Assembly: GCA_965262725.1 (NCBI GenBank)
Contig: OZ253555.1
Coordinates: forward strand, 2,080,001-2,144,000
Length of the DNA stretch: 64,000 bases
Reading direction: 5' to 3'
Source: Dehalococcoidia bacterium
GTDB taxonomy: Bacteria; Chloroflexota; Dehalococcoidia; UBA2979
A program made the translations under genes and the position numbers. Below are positions 2,605-51,819 of the stretch, in pieces. The number at the start of each line of letters is the position of its first letter. The first letter of the stretch is position 1. Below the pieces are notes generated by a model, which saw only the letters and a program-made list of their open reading frames with translations, ran no database searches and was not told the origin of the DNA.

Positions 2605-3200
2605 GGTGGGCCCTCCTGCTCGCGGCGCTCGCCGCCTGGGCGCTCGTCGCCGGGGCCTGCACCTGCCGGGGCGGGGACGGCGGCATGGACGAGCACCAGG
2701 CCCGTCCCCGCGCGGAGGGGATCGTGCCGCCGGTGACGGTGGTGCCCGTGACAGCGATCCGGCCGTACCCGCCGCCGGAGCCGGCGTCCGCGCCGACCAT
2801 TCCGCCCCCGCCCCCCGCCGAGCAGGAGCTGCTTCAGGCCTACGCGCGCTACTGGGAGCTCTACGCCGGGGCGCTGCTCGCACTCGACGGGAGCCGCCTC
2901 GGCGAGGTGATGACGGGCCCGCGCCTCGAGCGCGCCGAGCAGGAGATCGAACTGCTGACGCTCTCGGGCCACGCCGTCCGCATCGACGTCGAGAGCGCCC
3001 CCATCGTCGGAATGCTGGATGGAGAGGAGGCCGTCATCATCGACCGCTACCGGAACCAGAGCTACCTGGTCGACGCGGAGACCGGGCGACCGGTCGCCGC
3101 TCGCGGCGTCGCCAACACGGTCCACGCCACCGTCTCGCTCGTACTGGAGGAGGGCGCCTGGAAGGTGCGCGACTCGCTGAGGGAGGAGGCGTCCCGGTGA
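2601..3200 (+). CDS. Putative lipoprotein, NTF2-like C-terminal domain
   Basis: Signal peptide with lipobox-like VAGAC, Pro-rich linker, C-terminal LVLEEGAWKV; coupled to both neighbours. Confidence 0.65.
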   Translation: MRWALLLAALAAWALVAGACTCRGGDGGMDEHQARPRAEGIVPPVTVVPVTAIRPYPPPEPASAPTIPPPPPAEQELLQAYARYWELYAGALLALDGSRLGEVMTGPRLERAEQEIELLTLSGHAVRIDVESAPIVGMLDGEEAVIIDRYRNQSYLVDAETGRPVAARGVANTVHATVSLVLEEGAWKVRDSLREEASR

Positions 3201-28649: not shown

Positions 28650-30266
28650 ATGGGCAGAACTGAGCGAGCGGTCGGGTACGTCCGCGTCTCCACCGAGGAA
28701 CAGGCCGACGGGCACTCGCTCGATGCCCAGCGCCGCGAGATCGCACGCCACTGCGAGCGGCACGGGTACGAACTCGTGCGGATCTACGCGGACGAGGGCG
28801 TGAGCGCGCACACGGAGAAGATCGAGAAGCGGCCGATGCTAGCCGCGCTCCTCGACGCCTCCTCCCGCCGCGAGTTCGATGTCGTGGTGGTGCACACGAT
28901 TGATCGCTGGGCGCGGAACGTTGGTGTCCAGCGGCAGGCCCTGCAGTACCTCGGTCAATTCAACGTCGGCTTCGCCAGCGTCACCGAGAACATCGACTTC
29001 ACGACGCCAGCGGGGAAGCTGATGTTGACGATGATCGGGGGCGTCTCGGAGTTCTTCTCCGATCAACTCGCCGTCCACGTGAGCAAGGCGTTCCGGGAGC
29101 GGGCCGAGAACGGACTGCCGCCGGGTCCCGTGCCCTTCGGGTACGTGGCGCCGAGTCCCGGCGCGATCCCGGGCGTGGTCCCCGGGGAAGGGGAGGCGGT
29201 CGCCGAGGTCTTCCGGCAGCGGGCGCAGGGGGAGTCGTACGGCGCCATCGCCCGGTGGCTGAACGCGGAGGGCTTCGAGACGCGCGGGCACAACCCGGTC
29301 TTCACGTCGTTCGCGGTGAAGGACATGCTCGCCAACGTCTTCTACCGCGGTGCGGTTCTGTACAAGGGGACCGAGTTCGCGGGCGCCCACGAGGCGCTGG
29401 TCGACGACGACCTCTTCCGGCAGGTGCAGGCGAAGCGGGGGGTGCGGCGACAGCGGCGCCTCGTGGTCGGTGGCCGGGGGATCCTCCAGGGGCGGGTGAG
29501 CTGCGGGCACTGCGGAAGGGCGCTCCAATCCGACCGTGATCACCGGGGACGGCCGATGTACCGGGAGCGTCACGGCGAGCGGTGCAGCACGAACAACCGA
29601 TCCCTCATGGCCGCGGGCGTCGACGAGCAACTCGGTGCGATCTGGAAGTCGGTGCAGTTCTCGACGGACTGGCGCGACCGGATGGCGGAGATCCTCTCAG
29701 CCGGTTACGACGGTCCGAGCGCCGAGGACCTGGCCGAGAATCGTCGGCGCATCGCCCGGGCCTATGCCGACGGGGGACTCAACGAAACCGAGTACGAGGT
29801 GCGCCTCGCCGCGATCGACAAGCGCGCCCGGGACGTGCTCCGCCCCTCGGGCCCCGCGTTCGACGAGGCGGCGGAGTTGTTCTCGGACATGCCTGCGCTG
29901 TGGGAGCGGGCCGCGCCGGAGGAGCGGCGGCGGCTGGTGGCTCCCCTGATCGAGCGCGTCTACCTCGACATCGACTCGAGGCGCATCGGCGCGATCACGC
30001 CGACACCGGAGTTCAAGGCGCTGATCGACCATGCGCTCGAGCCGACGGCCGATCCCGAGGTCGCGCTGATCCCGCCGGAATCGGCTGAAGACGTTAGCAG
30101 TTGGAGATCCTGGAGATGGAGGTCAGGTGACATAACTGCCGACGACGGGGTCGATTTGAATCTGGACGAAAACGCTGACCTAGTAAACAGTTGGAGATGG
30201 TGGAGACGGGGGAGAATCGAACTCCCCGTCCAGAGAGCGTCCGTCACGGATCTGCTACGGGTGTAG
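28650..30266 (+). CDS. Large serine recombinase (ssrA-targeting integrase)
   Basis: AVGYVRVSTEEQ catalytic motif, DRWAR, PFGY, CGHCG zinc ribbon; the C-terminus overlaps the tmRNA 3' end. Confidence 0.93.
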   Translation: MGRTERAVGYVRVSTEEQADGHSLDAQRREIARHCERHGYELVRIYADEGVSAHTEKIEKRPMLAALLDASSRREFDVVVVHTIDRWARNVGVQRQALQYLGQFNVGFASVTENIDFTTPAGKLMLTMIGGVSEFFSDQLAVHVSKAFRERAENGLPPGPVPFGYVAPSPGAIPGVVPGEGEAVAEVFRQRAQGESYGAIARWLNAEGFETRGHNPVFTSFAVKDMLANVFYRGAVLYKGTEFAGAHEALVDDDLFRQVQAKRGVRRQRRLVVGGRGILQGRVSCGHCGRALQSDRDHRGRPMYRERHGERCSTNNRSLMAAGVDEQLGAIWKSVQFSTDWRDRMAEILSAGYDGPSAEDLAENRRRIARAYADGGLNETEYEVRLAAIDKRARDVLRPSGPAFDEAAELFSDMPALWERAAPEERRRLVAPLIERVYLDIDSRRIGAITPTPEFKALIDHALEPTADPEVALIPPESAEDVSSWRSWRWRSGDITADDGVDLNLDENADLVNSWRWWRRGRIELPVQRASVTDLLRV

Positions 30267-30550
30267 TCAGCGGTAAATCTCGCCGCCGCGCCTCCGCTGA
30301 CCAGGGGTGCGTCGACCAGTCTCGGTTAGCTTAGCGGGCGTCGCCCGAGGCGCACGCCGTCCGCGCATCCCGGCTTATCGTCGCCTCACCGAGCCCGCCG
30401 GGAGGGGGCCCGGGTCAACGTCGCTACCTAACTAGGCAGCGAGAGCGAGTTGTCGTTCGCCAGTTACCTTTTGCCACCTGATTTACGAGGGTGGTGGCAC
30501 CTCGACCCGCAAACCGCGTCCGTTGGCTCCTGTCGATTCCTGTCGTCCCC
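30198..30550 (-). ncRNA. ssrA: tmRNA
   Basis: 5' GGGGACGACAGGAATCGAC; 3' GGGGAGTTCGATTCTCCCCGTCTCCACCA; tag ORF (A)GERQLALAA* at 30461-30432; next to smpB. Confidence 0.96.
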
Positions 30551-45422: not shown

Positions 45423-48069
45423 GCTCGGCAGGGTCCTTCGCTAGTGTCCGCTGTGGAGCAAGTTGAGGATGGCCGTCCCGACATCCTACGGGCGCGACTC
45501 CTATAGCTTGCCTCCGACTCGCGCTCCCCGGCACGTCGCCACAATTGCGATAAAGGCAACACCTGGCGCGAGGCCACGTGCAGGCCGCATCACGCCACGT
45601 TCGAACTCCACGCCAGGCCGCATGCGCGGGGCGCACAGCAGCCTGGACTGGCTCGCCCCGGCTGCCCAAGCCGGGGGCTGTGCGCCATCCTGAGCACCTA
45701 GCTCAGGATGGCAAAGCCCGCTACTCGGAAGGCGGCGGCGCGGGCGGGACCTCGATCTCGCCGCTGCGGAACCAGACGCCTTGCGGTAGTTCGGCCGGCA
45801 GCAACACGTGCGTCGGCGTGACGGCGTTGCCGTTGGCGTCGCGGAAGCCGAGCTCGATGCGCCCATCGGACAGGCGCCGTGCGCGAATCGTCCCGATCGC
45901 GCTCTCGTTCACCTCGACATCGCTGCTGACGTACCACTGGTCAACGGCGGTATCCACCGGCAGGAAGCGGACAGACGGCAAGACTTGCTGGCCGCTGGCG
46001 AGTTCCACGGCGTGCTCGACGCGGCCGTCCTCGCCCAGCCGGGCGAGGATGCGCAGCGCGTATGGCGATGGCGGTGGCGGTTCCGTCGCCGCGGGCAGTT
46101 CGGGCGCGATGAGCTGGTTGAGCTCTTGGCTACCGCCGAGCCCCAGGCGTCTGAGGAACCGGGAGTTCACCGCATCGACGCCCGCCGCCGTGCAGAGCGT
46201 CGCGTCGGTCGCCAGGCCGTGGGTCGGCAGCGCCGCGCGGAGCTCCGCGTCGAGCTCGAGCAGCCCGTCGCCGTTCTCCACACCAGCCGCTATGAGGGCA
46301 TCGCCGAGCGACGCGTCGCGGCAGGAGGCCATCCGCGCGAGGTCGGCGACCATCGCGCTGACCACGGGATCCTGCCATCCCATCTCGGCGTCGCGGGCGG
46401 CCCGCACGATCTCTCCGGCCGTGATTGCCGGCGCGAGGACGCGCTCGGCGTAGGCGAGCTCGGACTGGAGCGCGAACGCCTCCGCGAAGGAGAGCGCCTC
46501 GCCGTCCGCGACCCGCTCCTGGAGCGCCCTCCAGGAGGCGGCCAACGACCCGTACCGCGCTGCCGCCGTCTCGGCCGTCCCGAGGGTCAGATCCTCGACG
46601 GCGACAGGGCTGATTGCCTCGCCCGAGGCCAGCGCTTCGACCAGCCCGGATCCTGCGATCGCGCTCGCGTACTGCTCCGCGATCGCCCTGGTCAGGGTGG
46701 TCGACGAAGCGTTCTCGAGGCCAGCGGACATCGGCTCGGCCGCGATCGGCAGCGCACCGAGGACCGACTGCTCGAAGATGCCGTCGAGCACCAGGGAGCG
46801 CACGCCTGCCGCGTAGATGGCTCTGGCCCGCAGTGCCTCGTCGATGTCCGCCCCGGGATCGGCGAGCGATGTCACGGAGGTCGTGACGAGCCCCTCTTCG
46901 TCGGCTGAGGCCGTGACCTCGTAGGCCGCACCGTCAACGGTGGCGGCGACCGGGCCGAAGGTCGGGCCGCCCAGCACCATCAGGTTCCGCCAGATGCCGT
47001 GGAACGCGATCTCCTCGCCGGCTTCGTCGAAAGCGATGACCGCGACGAACACCCACGAAGGGCCGGGTTCGCTGAGTGTGACCGCAAACGGCGCCACCCT
47101 GGCGGTCGCGATACTCGTCGCGCTCGCTGTCTGAGCGCCGGAATGATAGGAGACGCCTGCCCGCCACAGCTCCGGCGTCGCGATGATCCGCTCGAACACA
47201 CGAGGCGCCACCACGTACAACACGACGTTGCCGGCGGCGTCAGACAGGTCGCCGCCGCCCGGATTGCCGGTGCGGTAGTGAACGGCGAAGGGCTCGCCCG
47301 CGACCACCTCGTCGGGGGCGTGGGTCGCCTCGATCTTGAGCTGGAAGCGGCCCTGCCGCGCCTCCTCATCCACCAGGTGGACCACGAGGTCGAAGTCAGC
47401 CGTCAGAGGCTGGAGGTCGCGCTGCAGATACGTCGTCGCCTCGATCAGGTAGATACCCGCCGCCAGGTATTGTTCGATGCGTGAGTTGCGGCGGCCGCCA
47501 CCGTCGTCGTTGGCGCCGATGAAGTTCCCATCGGACGAGGCCAGAGAGAGGACCGGGTCGCCGTCGACCGACGTCAGGTCGATGAGCACGCGACCCTCGT
47601 GCGGCAGGTTGAAGGAGTAGGCATAGGCGGGGTGTTCCGCGACCACGCGTGAGCCGCACGTGTCGATCGTCCAGGTGCCGGATGCAGTGAGGTCGATACC
47701 CGGCTCGAGTGTGCCCAGATGTGCCGGCTCGCAACCGGTGACGTGCTCAACGGAAAGCCTGAAGTCCGCCGCGCCGCGTCCGCGTCCGCCGACCGTCGTG
47801 GCCTCGACGAGGTAGATGCCCGCCGCCAGCTCGCGCTCGATGCGCGCGTTGAGGTTGGCGCCGCCGTCGTCGTTGTCCGTGATGCGGGTCCCGTCCTCAT
47901 TCAGGAGGTAGAGGTAGGAATCACCGTCGGTCGACCTCAGGTCGATTCTGATCCGGTCACCCTCGGCGAGTTGGAATCGGTACGTGTGCGCATCGCTGTC
48001 AATGCGAAGGGGACTATATACAATGATGCCCCGGAGTGATAGAATAGGAGTGAAGCGAGGGGAGGGGCA

Positions 48070-49017
48070 ATGGCACGGAAGGCACCGGGACAGCACCGGC
48101 GCGCGGGGATCACCTACGTCTCCCTGGCCAAGATGTTCCCCGACGATGCCGCCGCGGAGAGCTGGTTCGTCGAGGAGCGCTGGCCGAACGGCGTTGCCTG
48201 CCCCAACGACGGCTCACTCAACGTGTTTGCCGGCTCCAAGCACAAGACCATGCCCATGCGCTGCCGCGACTGCCGGAAGCGCTTCAGCGTCCGCACCGGC
48301 ACCGTCATGGAGTCCTCCAACCTCGGCTACCAGACCTGGGCGATCGCCATCTACCTGCTCACCACGTCGCTCAAGGGCGTCTCTTCGATGAAGTTGCACC
48401 GGGATCTCGGCATCACGCAGAAGAGCGCGTGGCACCTGGCCCACCGCATCCGCGAGTCCTTCGATTCGTACGGCGCCGGCTCACCGCTCGACGGCCCGGT
48501 CGAGGTCGACGAGACGTTCGTGGGCGGCCTCGAGAAGAACAAGCACGAGCACAAGCGCCAGCACCAGCGTGGTGGCCCTGCGGGCAAGGCCCCTGTCCTC
48601 GGGATCAGGGACCGCACGAGCGGCGAGGTTCGCGCCCGCGCCGTCTCGCAGACGGACGGCGACACACTGCGCGGATTCGTCCGTGAGAACACCCGTCCGG
48701 GGTCGCAGGTCTACTCGGACGGCCACAGCGCCTACGTCCCGCTTGAGGGCGAGTACAAGCACGACGCCGTCCAGCACTCGGTTGGGACGTACGTGATCGG
48801 GGATGCCCACACCAACGGTATCGAGAGCTTCTGGTCGATGCTGAAGCGCGGCTACGTCGGGACGTATCACTTCATGAGTCCGAAGCACCTCGACCGTTAC
48901 GTGCGGGAGTTCTCAGGCCGTCACAACCAGCGCCCGCTCGACACGATCGACCAGATGCGGGCGGTCTGGCGCGGCATGGTGGGGCGAAGGTTGCGCTACG
49001 ACGAACTCACGGGGTAG
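48070..49017 (+). CDS. IS1595-family transposase
   Basis: ERWPNGVACP zinc finger, GVSSMKLHRDL HTH, VEVDETFVGG, YSDGH, HTNGIESFWSMLKRG. Confidence 0.95.
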   Translation: MARKAPGQHRRAGITYVSLAKMFPDDAAAESWFVEERWPNGVACPNDGSLNVFAGSKHKTMPMRCRDCRKRFSVRTGTVMESSNLGYQTWAIAIYLLTTSLKGVSSMKLHRDLGITQKSAWHLAHRIRESFDSYGAGSPLDGPVEVDETFVGGLEKNKHEHKRQHQRGGPAGKAPVLGIRDRTSGEVRARAVSQTDGDTLRGFVRENTRPGSQVYSDGHSAYVPLEGEYKHDAVQHSVGTYVIGDAHTNGIESFWSMLKRGYVGTYHFMSPKHLDRYVREFSGRHNQRPLDTIDQMRAVWRGMVGRRLRYDELTG

Positions 49018-49033
49018 GAGTTACACAAAATAG

Positions 49034-49276
49034 CTAGGGGGCGGTCCATATCCGTAACAGCATCATCGTTGCCATCACGATGGTCGTGATCGAAGGGACC
49101 GCGACGGCGACCACCAGCCAGCGCGCCATGCTGAACTGACCCTCGATGTTTGCGATTTTGGTCGTTAGTGCTCCCTCGGTTTTGGCAAGGGCAGTTTGCG
49201 TCGCGAAGTAACGGCGGACCTCATCGGCGGCGATATAGCCCATGGCTTTGCCGTTGCCGTCCGGCGCGTCTGTCAT
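49034..49276 (-). CDS. Small coiled-coil protein with C-terminal TM helix (passenger)
   Basis: FATQTALAKTEGAL..WLVVAVAV; ATGA-coupled to the upstream gene. Confidence 0.6.
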   Translation of the reverse strand: MTDAPDGNGKAMGYIAADEVRRYFATQTALAKTEGALTTKIANIEGQFSMARWLVVAVAVPSITTIVMATMMLLRIWTAP

Positions 49277-49551
49277 ACCCGGACTCCTTCGATCGCGCGC
49301 AGCCACGCCCATATGCGTGTCCAAGTAGAGCCAGCGATCGGAGCCCTTACGTTTAGGACAAGCACAGGCGATCCGTTGCCTAGACGTGCAACTACATCAG
49401 CGACTTCTAGGTCGTCACCGTGGACGAAGAACACATCATCCGTGAACCGGATGTGGTCATCACCGGGGAATGCCTGAGCGATCTGCTCCCGGATCTGCTG
49501 GTTTGCGTCGGACTCATCATCGTGTAGAAGCACCACATAGGAGTTGATCAT
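49273..49551 (-). CDS. Small alpha/beta protein, possibly ferredoxin-like fold (passenger)
   Basis: MINSYVVLL..VFFVH..VLVLNV..AG..IWAWL pattern. Confidence 0.65.
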   Translation of the reverse strand: MINSYVVLLHDDESDANQQIREQIAQAFPGDDHIRFTDDVFFVHGDDLEVADVVARLGNGSPVLVLNVRAPIAGSTWTRIWAWLRAIEGVRV

Positions 49552-49705
49552 GGTCGCTCTCTCTTGGTTAGGCACGAGCATTCTCCCTGTGCCGCGGTGC
49601 GGGCGGGATTGTAGCAGGCGCCGTACCCCGCGACGACACCGATCACGCGCCTCAATCGATCCGAAGCGCTGCGCGAGTGTGCGGATGCGCATTCTGCACC
49701 ACGAT

Positions 49706-50161
49706 CTACCGCCAGCCGAGGAGGTCAGAGCATTCCGCCGACTGAGTACCGAAATCCAACTCCCCGCCGCCGTTGTAGTAAGAGGCAGCGTACAGACCGA
49801 CCTGCTCCGCTGCCCCTCTCGTGTAGGTGCCTTCCGACACTACCTGGGCGATCCCGCCGCTGACAGCGGTGATCGACAGTCGATAGCCGGTCCCCTGCTC
49901 GAAGCACGAGCCGTACAGCTCGGCACCCTCGGATGGCACGGCGACCTGCACGACGGTGTCGATGCCGGTGACGGTGACGGACTCGACGGGATTGGCGACG
50001 GTCACGGTCTCGACCGGGTTCGCGATGGTCACCGTGTCGACCGGGTTTGCCACCGTGACCGTCTTGTCCATGACAGACACAAGGATCATCCCCGTCAGGG
50101 CCAACTGGACCGCAACTGCCAGAGCAGCGAGCCCGAACAATATGCTTCTGGCTGTCGGCAT
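49706..50161 (-). CDS. Membrane-anchored exported protein with VTVANPVE-type repeats (passenger)
   Basis: RBS GAGGAGG; N-terminal TM helix; four 9-aa repeats; Cys pair. Confidence 0.75.
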   Translation of the reverse strand: MPTARSILFGLAALAVAVQLALTGMILVSVMDKTVTVANPVDTVTIANPVETVTVANPVESVTVTGIDTVVQVAVPSEGAELYGSCFEQGTGYRLSITAVSGGIAQVVSEGTYTRGAAEQVGLYAASYYNGGGELDFGTQSAECSDLLGWR

Positions 50162-50321
50162 GGGAGCCTCCTCGCGGAGCAGTCGGGAGTTGACCGCTCT
50201 GGGCAGAAGGGCCACACCAGCACCATCCCGCGAGAAGGCACGAGGTCCTCCCGGGCTGCTGAACGGCACGGGTGTTGCGGCTCTGCCCAGAGCTCGCCGG
50301 TAGCCTTGGCGGTGTGCCCGC

Positions 50322-50378
50322 CGTTTGTCAAGGCGGCGACGCCGCCATTGGACAAACGCCCTAGACGACCGCTAATCT
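50322..50378. promoter_or_regulatory. Back-to-back promoters inside a palindrome
   Basis: TTGACA on minus (50331-50326); TGGACA..TAATCT on plus; arms CGTTTGTC/GACAAACG enclose GGCGGCG/CGCCGCC. Confidence 0.55.
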
Positions 50379-50388
50379 GCCCTCCGTA

Positions 50389-50516
50389 AGCTCTCCGCAA
50401 AGAGCTCGGACACCGGCGCGAACGAAAGCGAGCAGGGGCCTTCGTGCCTCCTTGCGGCTCGTGTCGGTGCGGCCCCTTTGCGGAGAGCGGTCTACCCCGC
50501 TTGCGCCGCAAGGGGG
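50389..50516 (+). ncRNA. Candidate structured RNA / attenuator
   Basis: 13-bp perfect IR GCTCTCCGCAAAG (50390-50402) / CTTTGCGGAGAGC (50476-50488) with internal stems; alternative hairpin AGCTCT-CCGCAA-AGAGCT. Confidence 0.5.
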
Positions 50517-50574
50517 CTCCACGTGACCCCTCCCGGCTGCGCGCTGCCGACGCCCGCGAAGGAAGGTGATTCAA

Positions 50575-50748
50575 ATGGAAGTGCTCCTGATTCTCGCGGT
50601 CTTGTGGGGGCTGCCCGTGGTGATCATCGGACTGATGGCCGACAGCCGCGGCCGCTCGCTGGCGTGGGTGATCTGGCCGCTTATGCTCGGCTGGATCGGC
50701 TGGGTTGTCGCCTTCCTGGCGCTGGTGAACCAGCCGAAGACGAAGTAG
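50575..50748 (+). CDS. Small two-TM membrane protein (passenger)
   Basis: RBS AGGAAGGTGA; MADSRGRSLAW loop between hydrophobic helices. Confidence 0.7.
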   Translation: MEVLLILAVLWGLPVVIIGLMADSRGRSLAWVIWPLMLGWIGWVVAFLALVNQPKTK

Positions 50749-50839
50749 GTCGCGCCCCCACAGGTTTACGCTGACGCTCACTGGACAACCGCCATGGGGG
50801 ACGCCACACTTTCTGAGTGAAGGGCGGGAGGAGCACCCC

Positions 50840-50965
50840 ATGGGTAACGAGAAGGATCTGCGGATTCCGACGACGCCGAAGGAGCTGGCGAAGGCGATTC
50901 TGAGCACGCCTCCGAAGCGCCGCTATCCACGGGGAGCACCACCACCCGCTTCCGTCACCAGGTAG
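50840..50965 (+). CDS. 41-aa basic peptide (passenger)
   Basis: Strong RBS GGAGGAG; MGNEKDLRIPTTPKELAKAILSTPPKRR.. Confidence 0.5.
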   Translation: MGNEKDLRIPTTPKELAKAILSTPPKRRYPRGAPPPASVTR

Positions 50966-50969
50966 GAGG

Positions 50970-51046
50970 TGGCGCCGGGGAAGGGTCTCGAACCCTCGTC
51001 TTCCCGATTAACAATCGGGCGCTCTCACCTACTGAGCTACCCCGGC
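50970..51046 (-). tRNA. tRNA-Asn (GTT), CCA-encoded, inside the IS1595 element
   Basis: Full cloverleaf: GCCGGGG TA GCTC AGTAGGTGA GAGC G CCCGA TTGTTAA TCGGG AAGAC GAGGG TTCGAGA CCCTT CCCCGGC G CCA. Confidence 0.92.
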
Positions 51047-51819
51047 ACCATCAGCGGGTCGCCTCCATCCCATGTGGGGGCGACCCCTCCTACCTTACTC
51101 CTCTCGGCCGGTCCCGGGGCACTACCCTATATACTCCCCAATGCGAAAGCGCGAGTCGCAGTCTTCAGTCGTCCAGCGGCCGTCTGTCGTCAGCTTGCTG
51201 TCCGCTTCCGCGCTGAGCGTCCCGAGGTCGATGACCTCGCAGGCAGACTCATCTTGCCCCCACGCGATGCTGGGCCCCTCCAGGGCCAGCAAACCGACGA
51301 TCACGGCGGCGGCGGCGCACGTCATGATCAGCGCGTGCACGCCGAGCCTCAGTGGGAGCAGAGCGGTTCGCATGATGGGCTACTTCGCGCGCGCGTGAAG
51401 CGCGGCATACGATCGTGGTCTGCGGGGACGATGCGCAGATGTTCGCAGCGCGCATGGTACGACGCCAGCGCGAAGCCGCCACCGACCGACCCGGCAGCTA
51501 TCCCATGGACTTCGCAGGGGAACACCCTCACGACGCCAACCTCGTGGTCCGATCAAGCATGGCCGAGGCGGCAACGCCCAGTCCCGCGGACTTCGTGGGG
51601 CTCACCGAAGACGGCCAACGGCAGTTTGACTGCCTGACCGAGTAGCAACTCGTGCGACTTCAGGAGCGCGGGGTGGCGCCGCTCTCGGCGCCGTAGCGGC
51701 ACCCCGTGCGCAGAGCGCGGGACGATCAGCGCCGCTGGGGCCTCGACGGTGCTATGACGGTGCGGTGAGATCCTGAGAGGGACGTCGGCGTCGCGCACGG
51801 CGTAGTTGGGGGGTAGAGG

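Follow-up and report, generated by a model that had tools for sequence, protein, structure and literature searches.

It was found that an insertion sequence (IS) of the IS1595 family in a Dehalococcoidia bacterium carries a complete transfer RNA (tRNA) gene, tRNA-Asn(GTT), near its right end, and that related elements hold tRNA genes or mini tRNA-like RNAs (TLSs) at the same place. The element (3131 bp, positions 48009-51139) lies in a 64,000-nucleotide (nt) stretch of contig OZ253555.1 (positions 2,080,001 to 2,144,000; assembly GCA_965262725.1; Chloroflexota, Dehalococcoidia, UBA2979), called the window here. The window sits on a single 3.67-Mb contig with 70.6% G+C, and positions are those of the window unless a genome or a locus is named. 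I am highly confident of the structural part of this finding, namely a real IS, a real tRNA gene and a recurrent slot whose RNA moves with the element. A role of the tRNA shape in the service of the element is a more tentative idea. The explanation as a whole, an IS1595 clade with a conserved RNA slot in which the tRNA shape is selected, is the one towards which I lean slightly. The features that matter for it are the following, with amino acids abbreviated as aa, open reading frames as ORFs, target site duplication as TSD, and the left and right terminal inverted repeats (TIRs) as IRL and IRR.

45721..48008, minus strand: 3′ part of the interrupted host gene, a PPC-domain protein (ORF and domain search)
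48001..48008, no strand: left TSD copy AATGCGAA, 8 bp, the same as 51140-51147
48009..48048, plus strand: IRL, starts GGGGACTATATAC / GGGGACTATATACAATGATGCCCCGG (sequence read and end comparison)
48017..48045, plus strand: candidate sigma-70-like promoter inside IRL, for the transposase, TATACA-17-TAGAAT with TG ahead of the -10 (consensus match only)
48070..49017, plus strand: IS1595-family DDE transposase, 315 aa (DDE_Tnp_IS1595 and Zn_ribbon_IS1595)
50840..50965, plus strand: orf2, small basic protein, 41 aa, core ..RIPTTPKELAKAIL.. (alignment and profile search)
50970..51046, minus strand: tRNA-Asn(GTT), 77 nt, G73, encoded CCA, G1-C72 (ARAGORN and Rfam)
51053..51088, minus strand: GC-rich hairpin GGGGUCGCC...GGCGACCC, which stops a few nt before the tRNA 5′ end; z -1.47
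51100..51139, minus strand: IRR, ends GTATATACTCCCC; inward = GGGGAGTATATAG / GGGGAGTATATAGGGTAGTGCCCCGG (sequence read)
51140..51147, no strand: right TSD copy AATGCGAA (sequence read)
51140..51373, minus strand: 5′ part of the host gene, 78 codons, signal-peptide-like, its transcription directed at the IS right end and the tRNA

Structurally, this is an intact transporter IS, and it belongs to the IS1595 family. Its transposase matches PF12762 (DDE_Tnp_IS1595) over profile positions 2-153 of 153 (E 1.6e-39, 135.8 bits), and the IS1595 zinc ribbon (PF12760) is matched marginally, at 25.5 bits for a cut-off of 25.4. C44, C65 and C68, the cysteines of the first ~70 aa, are invariant across 8 aligned relatives. 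Homologues on plasmids, at most 47% identical, carry the annotation 'IS1595 family transposase'. Besides the DDE domain and the marginal zinc ribbon, the element has the inverted ends and the 8-bp TSD of the family; IRL and the inward-read IRR are identical at 20 of the 26 outermost positions. A promoter arrangement like that in IRL was flagged by the consensus scan in the IRL of 2 related elements. When the element and one TSD copy are removed in silico, a single 837-aa ORF results, running from the first Met on the minus strand across the junction, and the PPC domain lies in its C-terminal piece, starting a few residues past the junction. All coordinates that the first-pass annotation had given for the element, its TIRs, its TSD and the restored host gene hold. 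Both junctions are spanned without differences by contigs of runs X1 and X5, which belong to separate studies, so the element is no assembly chimera. By BLAST against its own genome it is single-copy. No empty-site joint was seen among the contigs of 4 runs, and an identical element was not found in 60 related genomes.

The tRNA gene is called by both ARAGORN and Rfam. RF00005 scores 71.4 bits against a gathering score of 29, with 71 of 71 model positions matched. According to ARAGORN the cloverleaf is fully paired, with arms of 7/4/5/5 bp, and the core is readable: U8, A14, G18G19, U33, a TTCGA T loop and the encoded CCA. The gene lies 93 bp inside the right end (51139 minus 51046) and is oriented inward, as had been claimed at first pass. 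The Asn identity set consists of the anticodon GUU and G73; the IS-borne gene has the anticodon gtt at position 35 and the discriminator G. The view that the tRNA is cargo and not an attachment site also stands, given that the carrier is a DDE transposon, that a profile search found no recombinase or integrase domain in its six ORFs, and that the target is a protein-coding gene. Flanking it at 50960-50976 and 51079-51095 are the arms of a 17-nt inverted repeat with 88% complementarity. The first arm spans the stop codon of orf2 and the 3′ end of the tRNA, the second is part of the leader hairpin, and in a precursor they could pair leader with trailer.

The host has its ordinary tRNA-Asn(GTT) at genome 3463787-3463862. 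The comparison of the two genes, which the first-pass annotation had proposed, gave the same anticodon on a different body: acceptor stem, D loop, anticodon stem and position 32 all differ, and the IS-borne gene is at most 56/77 (73%) identical to any host tRNA. Its best matches in 400 further Chloroflexota genomes are 78-80% identical. Eight of the 27 matching places in those other genomes were typed by ARAGORN, all as other isotypes (Met, Thr, Gly), so the matches seem to reflect generic tRNA similarity. An exact 40-nt pattern of the gene was found in 0 metagenome stretches. Because host tRNAs are so distant, the Chloroflexota matches generic and a metagenome match absent, the tRNA-Asn is, judged by its sequence, foreign to the host.

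Bacterial GatCAB accepts tRNA-Asn via the U1-A72 pair. The host tRNA-Asn has U1-A72, whereas the IS-borne one has G1-C72. In the host genome no asparaginyl-tRNA synthetase (AsnRS) was found above the family cut-off (best 109 vs 342.6 bits), and GatB is present (540.8 bits); thus Asn-tRNA is probably made by the indirect route. If the U1-A72 rule holds, the IS-borne tRNA-Asn may not be handled as a normal tRNA-Asn in the host cell.

Is the tRNA gene an accident of this copy? The order of the right end argues for a conserved RNA slot in the clade, in which IRR, the GC hairpin and a tRNA-shaped RNA gene convergent on orf2 follow one another from the right end inward. Right ends were aligned for this comparison, as summed statistics dominated the tblastx results and unequal cargo made whole-element MAFFT alignment unusable. 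In the alignment of this element, a copy named E2a from the same genome and elements of three related genomes, a conserved small ORF is followed by a T arm, acceptor and CCA on the opposite strand. The order orf2, convergent tRNA or TLS, hairpin, IRR was found in the window element, in E2a and its second copy E2b, and in the elements of genomes G003, G028, G107 and G105. In all of these except the window element the RNA is a TLS of 69-71 nt near the right end, oriented inward. The cargo between the transposase gene and orf2 is entirely different from one related element to another. These relatives come from uncultured Chloroflexota/Dehalococcoidia, many of them in sponge-derived bins. A c-di-AMP riboswitch (L137:4576-4712, 74.2 bits) lies ~540 bp beyond the left end of the G105 element.

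The orf2 core reads ..RIP(A/T)(T/S)P(E/Q)ELA(K/R)A(V/I)L.., and since the variation at third codon positions among copies fits, orf2 appears to be a coding sequence. A profile search gave 124 database relatives at E<=0.01, all unnamed, and no Pfam family. Wherever an element has an RNA gene, this gene and orf2 converge, 0-40 nt apart; in the window 4 nt separate the orf2 stop codon from the 3′ end of the tRNA. In two loci, L024 and L026, the pair is inverted and stands beside the transposase gene. An obligate pair of orf2 and tRNA was considered and ruled out, as a hidden Markov model scan showed orf2 to be common near the right end of tRNA-less relatives, where it ends ~30-60 bp from the element end. 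Thus orf2 looks like an ancient component of the clade that is not dedicated to the tRNA.

A GC-rich hairpin was found 4-13 nt upstream of the RNA 5′ end in every IS-borne case that was folded, namely six right ends and eight further cases. Its z score is -3.3 to -5.9 in 5 related right ends and -1.7 to -5.0 in the 8 further cases; in two cases, including the window's own, it is only -1.5 to -1.7. A TAnnnT motif (TAAGGT, TAGGCT, TAGTCT) just ahead of the hairpins was seen by eye; it is unscored and is not relied on.

The enrichment of RNA genes was counted in two sets. Set A comprises TIR-bounded IS1595-type copies from this genome and its order. Left out of it were L018 (no ends found), L142 (bounded, with a partial transposase and no tRNA), the truncated L024 (tRNA-Phe), L025 and L141, and the fragments L019-L021. 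Set B comprises bounded distant relatives from other phyla; 47 of 80 loci were dropped because they had no exact-duplication bounds, including L030, L072 and L082, and 4 more as duplicates of set A. In set A, a tRNA or TLS is present in 8 of 16 copies (7 of 14 distinct elements). This gives 9 genes in 46,048 bp inside the elements (0.195/kb) vs 1 in 176,779 bp of flanks (0.006/kb), a ~30-fold difference. In set B, 3 loci with 4 genes were found in 29 elements, and the density of 0.047/kb inside vs 0.018/kb in flanks is a weak enrichment. It had been reasoned at first pass that absence from all related elements would mark a one-off capture. No such absence is seen: relatives hold tRNAs or TLSs at the same place.

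The RNA gene inside the TIRs travels with the element. Four other IS1595-type copies are present in the same genome. E2a (1979203-1981577) and E2b (58969-61342) are full elements of ~2375 bp with different 8-bp TSDs and the TLS in both. One of the set B elements is present twice in one Acidobacteriota metagenome-assembled genome (MAG); its two copies (L060 and L062) likewise have different TSDs, with a mini RNA of the same kind behind a 14-bp hairpin in both. Since each of these pairs consists of two copies with different duplications, the RNA gene must have moved with the IS. L024 (genome 702346-704240) is an IS1595-type copy whose transposase gene is truncated at the 5′ side (residues ~121-313). 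It has a complete tRNA-Phe(GAA) of 69.1 bits, convergent with its orf2 copy and with U73 vs A73 in the host, and a right-end-like repeat at 702346. In G107, L141 is a similarly truncated copy in which orf2 is present and the tRNA absent.

Full tRNA genes were found in other relatives as well. The G107 element has an 88-nt class-II tRNA (L134:5854-5941, 54.8 bits) with a long variable arm, the anticodon CCA and G73, 225 bp past the transposase gene on the opposite strand; read at face value, it would be a serine-type body with a Trp anticodon. In L026, L030, L051, L072 and L082, tRNAs lie inside or just past the transposase gene, all above the Rfam gathering score. L030 is TIR-bounded with a tRNA-Gly inside, and in L072 and L082, to which no bounds were assigned, the tRNA is ~200 bp past the transposase gene. 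The Acidobacteriota copy L062 lies 18 bp from a chromosomal tRNA-Pro(GGG) (L062:5824-5900). In L097, tRNA-Ser and tRNA-Pro genes are just upstream of the transposase gene. These two loci may hint at insertion near tRNA genes.

What are the TLSs? A strict tRNA-shape scanner (7-bp acceptor, 5-bp T stem, TTYRA loop, NCCA) gave 52 hits in the whole 3.67-Mb genome, some of them double-counted at alternative 5′ starts; they are the ARAGORN-called tRNA genes, the two E2 TLS copies and one other place. With ARAGORN, the -ps80 setting and the mitochondrial mode produced mainly noise. Five mini RNAs then served to build a covariance model, R1, which was run on 99 genomes of the order. The R1 type is defined by G3·U70, A73, a 3-bp mini D hairpin, a 5-bp helix abutting the T arm and a length of 69-75 nt, and the mini RNAs of the sister elements are of this type. 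The search gave 12 places at 39 bits or more, with ordinary tRNAs at 36.7 bits or less. Nine of the 12 are beside a transposase gene (6 in IS1595 elements, and L173, L176 and L177), and 3 are without a transposase in the flanks examined. In the window the sole R1 match at E<=1 is the end of the host transfer-messenger RNA (tmRNA). The window's tRNA-Asn is not of the R1 type, having C3-G70, a normal D arm and 77 nt.

Some places in the genome came up beside these searches. At genome 2438650-2438730 there is an 81-nt tRNA-shaped sequence with a 7-bp acceptor, a T arm and ACCA, uncalled by ARAGORN; tblastn found no IS1595 transposase in the 1.5 kb searched on each side. A weak R1 match (39.2 bits) at genome 2414553-2414624 ends in ACCG and is likewise uncalled by ARAGORN, and no IS1595 transposase was found within 8 kb by tblastn. 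Three 82-nt 'tRNA-Ser(tga)' calls of ARAGORN (genome 342535, 405878 and 736840) were rejected as false positives, being identical pieces of a multi-copy repeat that lack both acceptor pairing and CCA. Multi-copy repeats of ~0.9-2.1 kb with 99-100% identity abound in the genome, and one 1.5-kb unit is present in more than 12 copies.

By comparison of the mini RNAs, the TLS is a real structured RNA, and its members form a covarying family with G3·U70, A73 and CCA. In a structure test of 13 loci (13 sequences), 95.3% of cells were paired vs 68.6% in shuffled and 44-60% in slid controls, from an alignment that was fitted to the model and that favours structure somewhat. Compensatory changes were seen in 14 of 20 pairs; G1-C72 and G2-C71 do not vary, and 12 of the 13 sequences have G3·U70. 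G3·U70 with A73 is the alanine acceptor signature. The D arm of the mini RNAs is reduced and the anticodon domain irregular, with 7-bp stems or loops of 8-13 nt. The anticodon-like loops read UAC, CCA or UGG in an ambiguous register, for which ARAGORN gives differing triplets or quadruplets. Rfam gave no match at E<=10 for the TLSs borne by IS1595 elements. Between E2a and G107 the TLS looks as if it were under purifying selection relative to the adjoining spacer, because ~3 of 71 TLS positions differ beside a hairpin spacer that has been largely replaced.

The mini RNA is found in other surroundings, too. In L173 (8236-8307) it lies 32 bp upstream of an IS1-like transposase gene, and in L176 (1571-1641) and L177 (8641-8714) 72 bp upstream of an IS5-like gene (DDE_Tnp_1 and DUF772), in each case behind a hairpin and in the orientation of the gene. 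The similarity between L176 and L177 ends at the 5′ side of the mini RNA. A degenerate pattern for the 3′ part gave 21 metagenome stretches. Among the metagenome loci, L193 (1420-1491) and L197 have an identical mini RNA, behind a hairpin and oriented like the ORF in L193, 34 bp upstream of a 274-aa ORF; the L193 ORF matches the IS1 transposase family, an assignment by scan that covers this ORF and not that of L197. In metagenome contigs a 72-74-nt variant stands beside purH and purB (L196:1767-1838, L206:1150-1223), which may represent an undescribed chromosomal tRNA-like RNA of some lineage; it aligns with both ends of the Rfam tmRNA model at 26-38 bits, less than the gathering score. Metagenome arrays of 10-23 tRNA genes were found in L201, L204, L208, L210 and L211, and some of them include 72-nt members that resemble tRNA-Ala(TGC) but have a reduced D arm, as well as tRNAs whose anticodon loop has 8 nt. 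The possibility that the TLS is specific to ISs is ruled out by the copies beside purH and purB and within tRNA arrays. On sequence grounds, the TLS is part of a wider family of tmRNA/tRNA-Ala-like mini RNAs that ISs appear to have taken up repeatedly.

How might the RNA serve the element? A precursor of hairpin leader and tRNA would be transcribed inward from the right end; in the window copy, read-through from the interrupted and like-oriented host gene would be an equally possible source. Normal tRNA-processing enzymes (RNase P and 3′ trimming) would free the tRNA. Where transcripts enter or cross the IS end, the RNA would then act as a signal for processing or insulation, or as a mimic of a tRNA. 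Because the isotype and the anticodon domain vary, while the acceptor and T half, the CCA, the hairpin and the orientation are kept, the selected property would be the tRNA shape. Extra capacity to decode Asn codons seems a less likely benefit. The tRNA supply suggested in the first-pass annotation is unlikely for a gene that duplicates a host anticodon on a foreign body, in a host with GatB and no AsnRS above cut-off, and in a slot that holds other isotypes and mini RNAs elsewhere.

Several points weigh against a selected RNA slot. Half of the close-relative copies (8 of 16) and 26 of 29 bounded distant relatives have no tRNA or TLS, so the RNA must be dispensable for transposition, and at least four elements (G002, G004, L141 and L095) have orf2 but no tRNA. 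The related elements are not independent, and the TLSs of E2, G107 and G028 probably go back to one ancestral acquisition. The TLS family also occurs outside ISs, next to purH and purB and in the large tRNA arrays, and the pair counts carry the bias of their fitted alignment. By consensus scan, neither the minus strand of 51047-51139 nor the IRR of E2a and G028 has a sigma-70-like promoter. Finally, the window's tRNA-Asn is fully canonical, with the anticodon arm included. A pure shape role does not need this, and it therefore fits a decoding function or a recent capture.

The main rivals are a spare or decoy tRNA and a neutral hitch-hiker. Phage-encoded tRNAs have been proposed to counter tRNA-targeting nucleases. 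The IS-borne tRNA could likewise act in trans as a spare or decoy, either as a back-up isoacceptor or as a body that escapes or soaks up tRNA-targeting nucleases or toxins. This would suit a canonical and complete gene that has the anticodon of the host tRNA-Asn on a different body. It would also suit the tRNA-Phe of L024, which duplicates a host anticodon with U73 for A73, and the diverse isotypes of the relatives (Asn, Phe, Gly, two in L051, class-II), all above the Rfam gathering score. The host lineage is rich in mobile DNA and its relatives are sponge-associated MAGs. However, no nuclease, toxin or defence protein is recognisable among the six ORFs; searches of the passenger ORFs and orf2 against Pfam, NCBIfam and PADLOC gave no significant match. 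The mini RNAs, with their reduced D arm and irregular anticodon domains, would be poor substitutes in decoding, and the G1-C72 tRNA may not become Asn-tRNA in this host if GatCAB follows the U1-A72 rule. The constant hairpin and the end-proximal inward orientation are also left unexplained. I regard a spare or decoy tRNA as unlikely. The anti-tRNase module or tRNA antitoxin of the first-pass annotation keeps its place within this reading as an idea, and the cargo proteins lend it no direct support.

The tRNA could also be a neutral hitch-hiker. An ancestral IS beside a tRNA gene would have used a surrogate right end beyond it, trapping the tRNA and its leader, and the gene would persist since the element is young. 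Its place between orf2 and IRR is where such end-skipping would put captured DNA, in keeping with the short distance from orf2 to the end in tRNA-less relatives, and the Acidobacteriota copy beside tRNA-Pro shows an IS at such a site. The single copy, the absence of an identical element from the 60 relatives and the tRNA-less half of the close relatives point the same way. On the other hand, no donor was found in the 400 Chloroflexota genomes (best 78-80%) or by the exact 40-nt metagenome search. The slot is filled in six other elements, always inward and always with a hairpin, at a density ~30 times that of the flanks. The TLS, moreover, was kept beside a replaced spacer between E2a and G107, which speaks for selection and not drift. 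A neutral passenger is thus rather improbable.

Could the RNAs be mobile mis-decoding tRNAs, charged by their acceptor stem and reading other codons, which spread a regulated mistranslation? According to general acceptor identity rules, a tRNA-Asn(GUU) with G1-C72 would remain charged with Asp in a host that depends on GatCAB, and G3·U70 mini RNAs would carry Ala to Val, Trp or Pro codons. The GatB-positive host without AsnRS above cut-off, the G1-C72 vs U1-A72 difference, the G3·U70 and A73 of 12 of 13 TLSs with loops of UAC, CCA or UGG, and the G107 class-II tRNA with G73 and anticodon CCA would all agree with this. However, decoding on the ribosome is doubtful for mini RNAs that have no normal D arm and have 7-bp stems or 8-13-nt loops, their 'anticodon' register is ambiguous, and constitutive mistranslation is usually costly. 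This makes mis-decoding very unlikely. A landing pad for integrase-driven islands carried by the IS, as suggested at first pass, is scarcely credible: integrases usually target the part of tRNA genes from the T arm to CCA, which is the most conserved part of the TLS, and the cargo is variable, but no integrase or recombinase domain is found in the element, the tRNA segment (element positions 2962-3038) had no further match in the element's own genome by BLAST at E<=1e-5, and the variable cargo was not inserted at the tRNA because the conserved orf2 abuts its 3′ end.

The conserved RNA slot, with its proposed selection for the tRNA shape, can be compared with known systems. ISs are regarded as minimal, with a transposase gene and two ends and sometimes protein passengers. 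In the passenger-carrying subgroups of IS1595 (transporter ISs such as ISNwi1 and ISNha5), the passengers known to have been described are protein genes. The element resembles these ISs in its single DDE transposase with an N-terminal zinc ribbon, GGGG... ends, 8-bp TSD and extra genes before the right end, and differs from them in the tRNA or TLS gene and leader hairpin at a conserved position beside orf2. What sets this transporter IS apart is its passenger, a tRNA that occupies a conserved RNA slot. The first-pass annotation had named no IS-borne tRNA, and a full-text literature search, with most subscription journals outside its scope, likewise gave no description of a tRNA or tRNA-like gene inside an IS.

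Phages, plasmids, integrative elements and mobile tRNA arrays do carry tRNA genes. Similar to those, the IS-borne gene duplicates a host anticodon on a divergent body, and the metagenome arrays of 10-23 tRNAs include the same mini tRNA-Ala-like type. Unlike those, the carrier is a 3-kb DDE IS with one RNA gene at a fixed, end-proximal, inward site and with no translation-heavy life cycle.

The tRNA-like domain of tmRNA (RF00023) is similar to the mini RNAs of the sister elements in its G3·U70/A73/CCA acceptor, its T arm, the reduction of its D region and the helix that stands where a tRNA has its anticodon arm. Four of five metagenome mini RNAs tested (L196, L198, L206 and L208) align to both ends of the tmRNA model at 21-38 bits, which is below the gathering score of 47, and the mini RNA of L193 matched tRNA-Sec and not the tmRNA model. 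In contrast to tmRNA, the mini RNAs are 69-75 nt long and have no mRNA-like part. The host tmRNA itself is in the window and is unrelated to the element:

30198..30550, minus strand: host tmRNA with the tag GERQLALAA (ARAGORN)

As a working model, the slot may be compared with tRNA-like processing signals in longer transcripts, namely plant mitochondrial t-elements, the MALAT1 mascRNA and mitochondrial tRNA punctuation. In each of them a tRNA-shaped unit is valued for being cut by tRNA enzymes and the anticodon is irrelevant, as might be the case here; those systems are eukaryotic or organellar. Structured RNAs conserved with the element next to an IS end are also known as the bridge RNA of IS110 and the omega RNA of IS200/IS605, which guide their own recombinase or nuclease. 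Those belong to other enzyme families, half of the IS1595 relatives have no RNA, and DDE IS1595 transposases are not known to use an RNA cofactor.

The slot adds an RNA component to the picture of the DDE IS, and the mini RNA upstream of transposase genes of two other IS families points in the same direction. If the RNA acts in cis, it would be a bacterial counterpart of the organellar and eukaryotic tRNA-like processing signals and a new means by which an IS handles transcription across its own ends. If it acts in trans, ISs would be vehicles for spare, decoy or mis-decoding tRNAs, which would bear on tRNA-targeting defence systems and on translation fidelity. A bolder generalisation is that tRNA-shaped RNAs are selected and integral parts of DDE ISs of at least three families (IS1595, IS1-like and IS5-like) in uncultured bacteria. 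Some would be full tRNAs, as in the window, and others tmRNA-like mini RNAs with the alanine signature. They would form an unrecognised class of IS RNAs, inward and with a hairpin ahead, that control the expression or transposition of the element or that spread tRNA mimics or mis-decoding tRNAs. I consider this doubtful. Model R1 provides a concrete and testable RNA family, which Rfam 15 does not recognise as a family of its own.

The remaining part of the element, between the transposase gene and orf2, consists of the following passengers.

49034..49324, minus strand: passenger ORF, 96 aa, hydrophobic C-terminus, without family (ORF list and profile searches)
49273..49692, minus strand: passenger ORF, 139 aa as listed, ~92 aa from a later ATG, without family (ORF list and profile searches)
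49706..50269, minus strand: passenger ORF, 187 aa as listed, N-terminal hydrophobic segment, without family (ORF list and profile search)
50186..50498, no strand: inverted-repeat-rich intergenic stretch between the 187-aa and 60-aa passenger ORFs
50566..50748, plus strand: passenger ORF, 60 aa, two hydrophobic segments (ORF list)

The 187-aa ORF has three 27-nt tandem repeats (49967-50047). The stretch at 50186-50498 has nested inverted repeats, including a pair of 43-nt arms separated by 227 nt. It may serve in regulation, be a small repeat element or encode a structured RNA. Of its sequence, ~90 nt recur in E2a/E2b and G028, with 77-87% identity and in both orientations.

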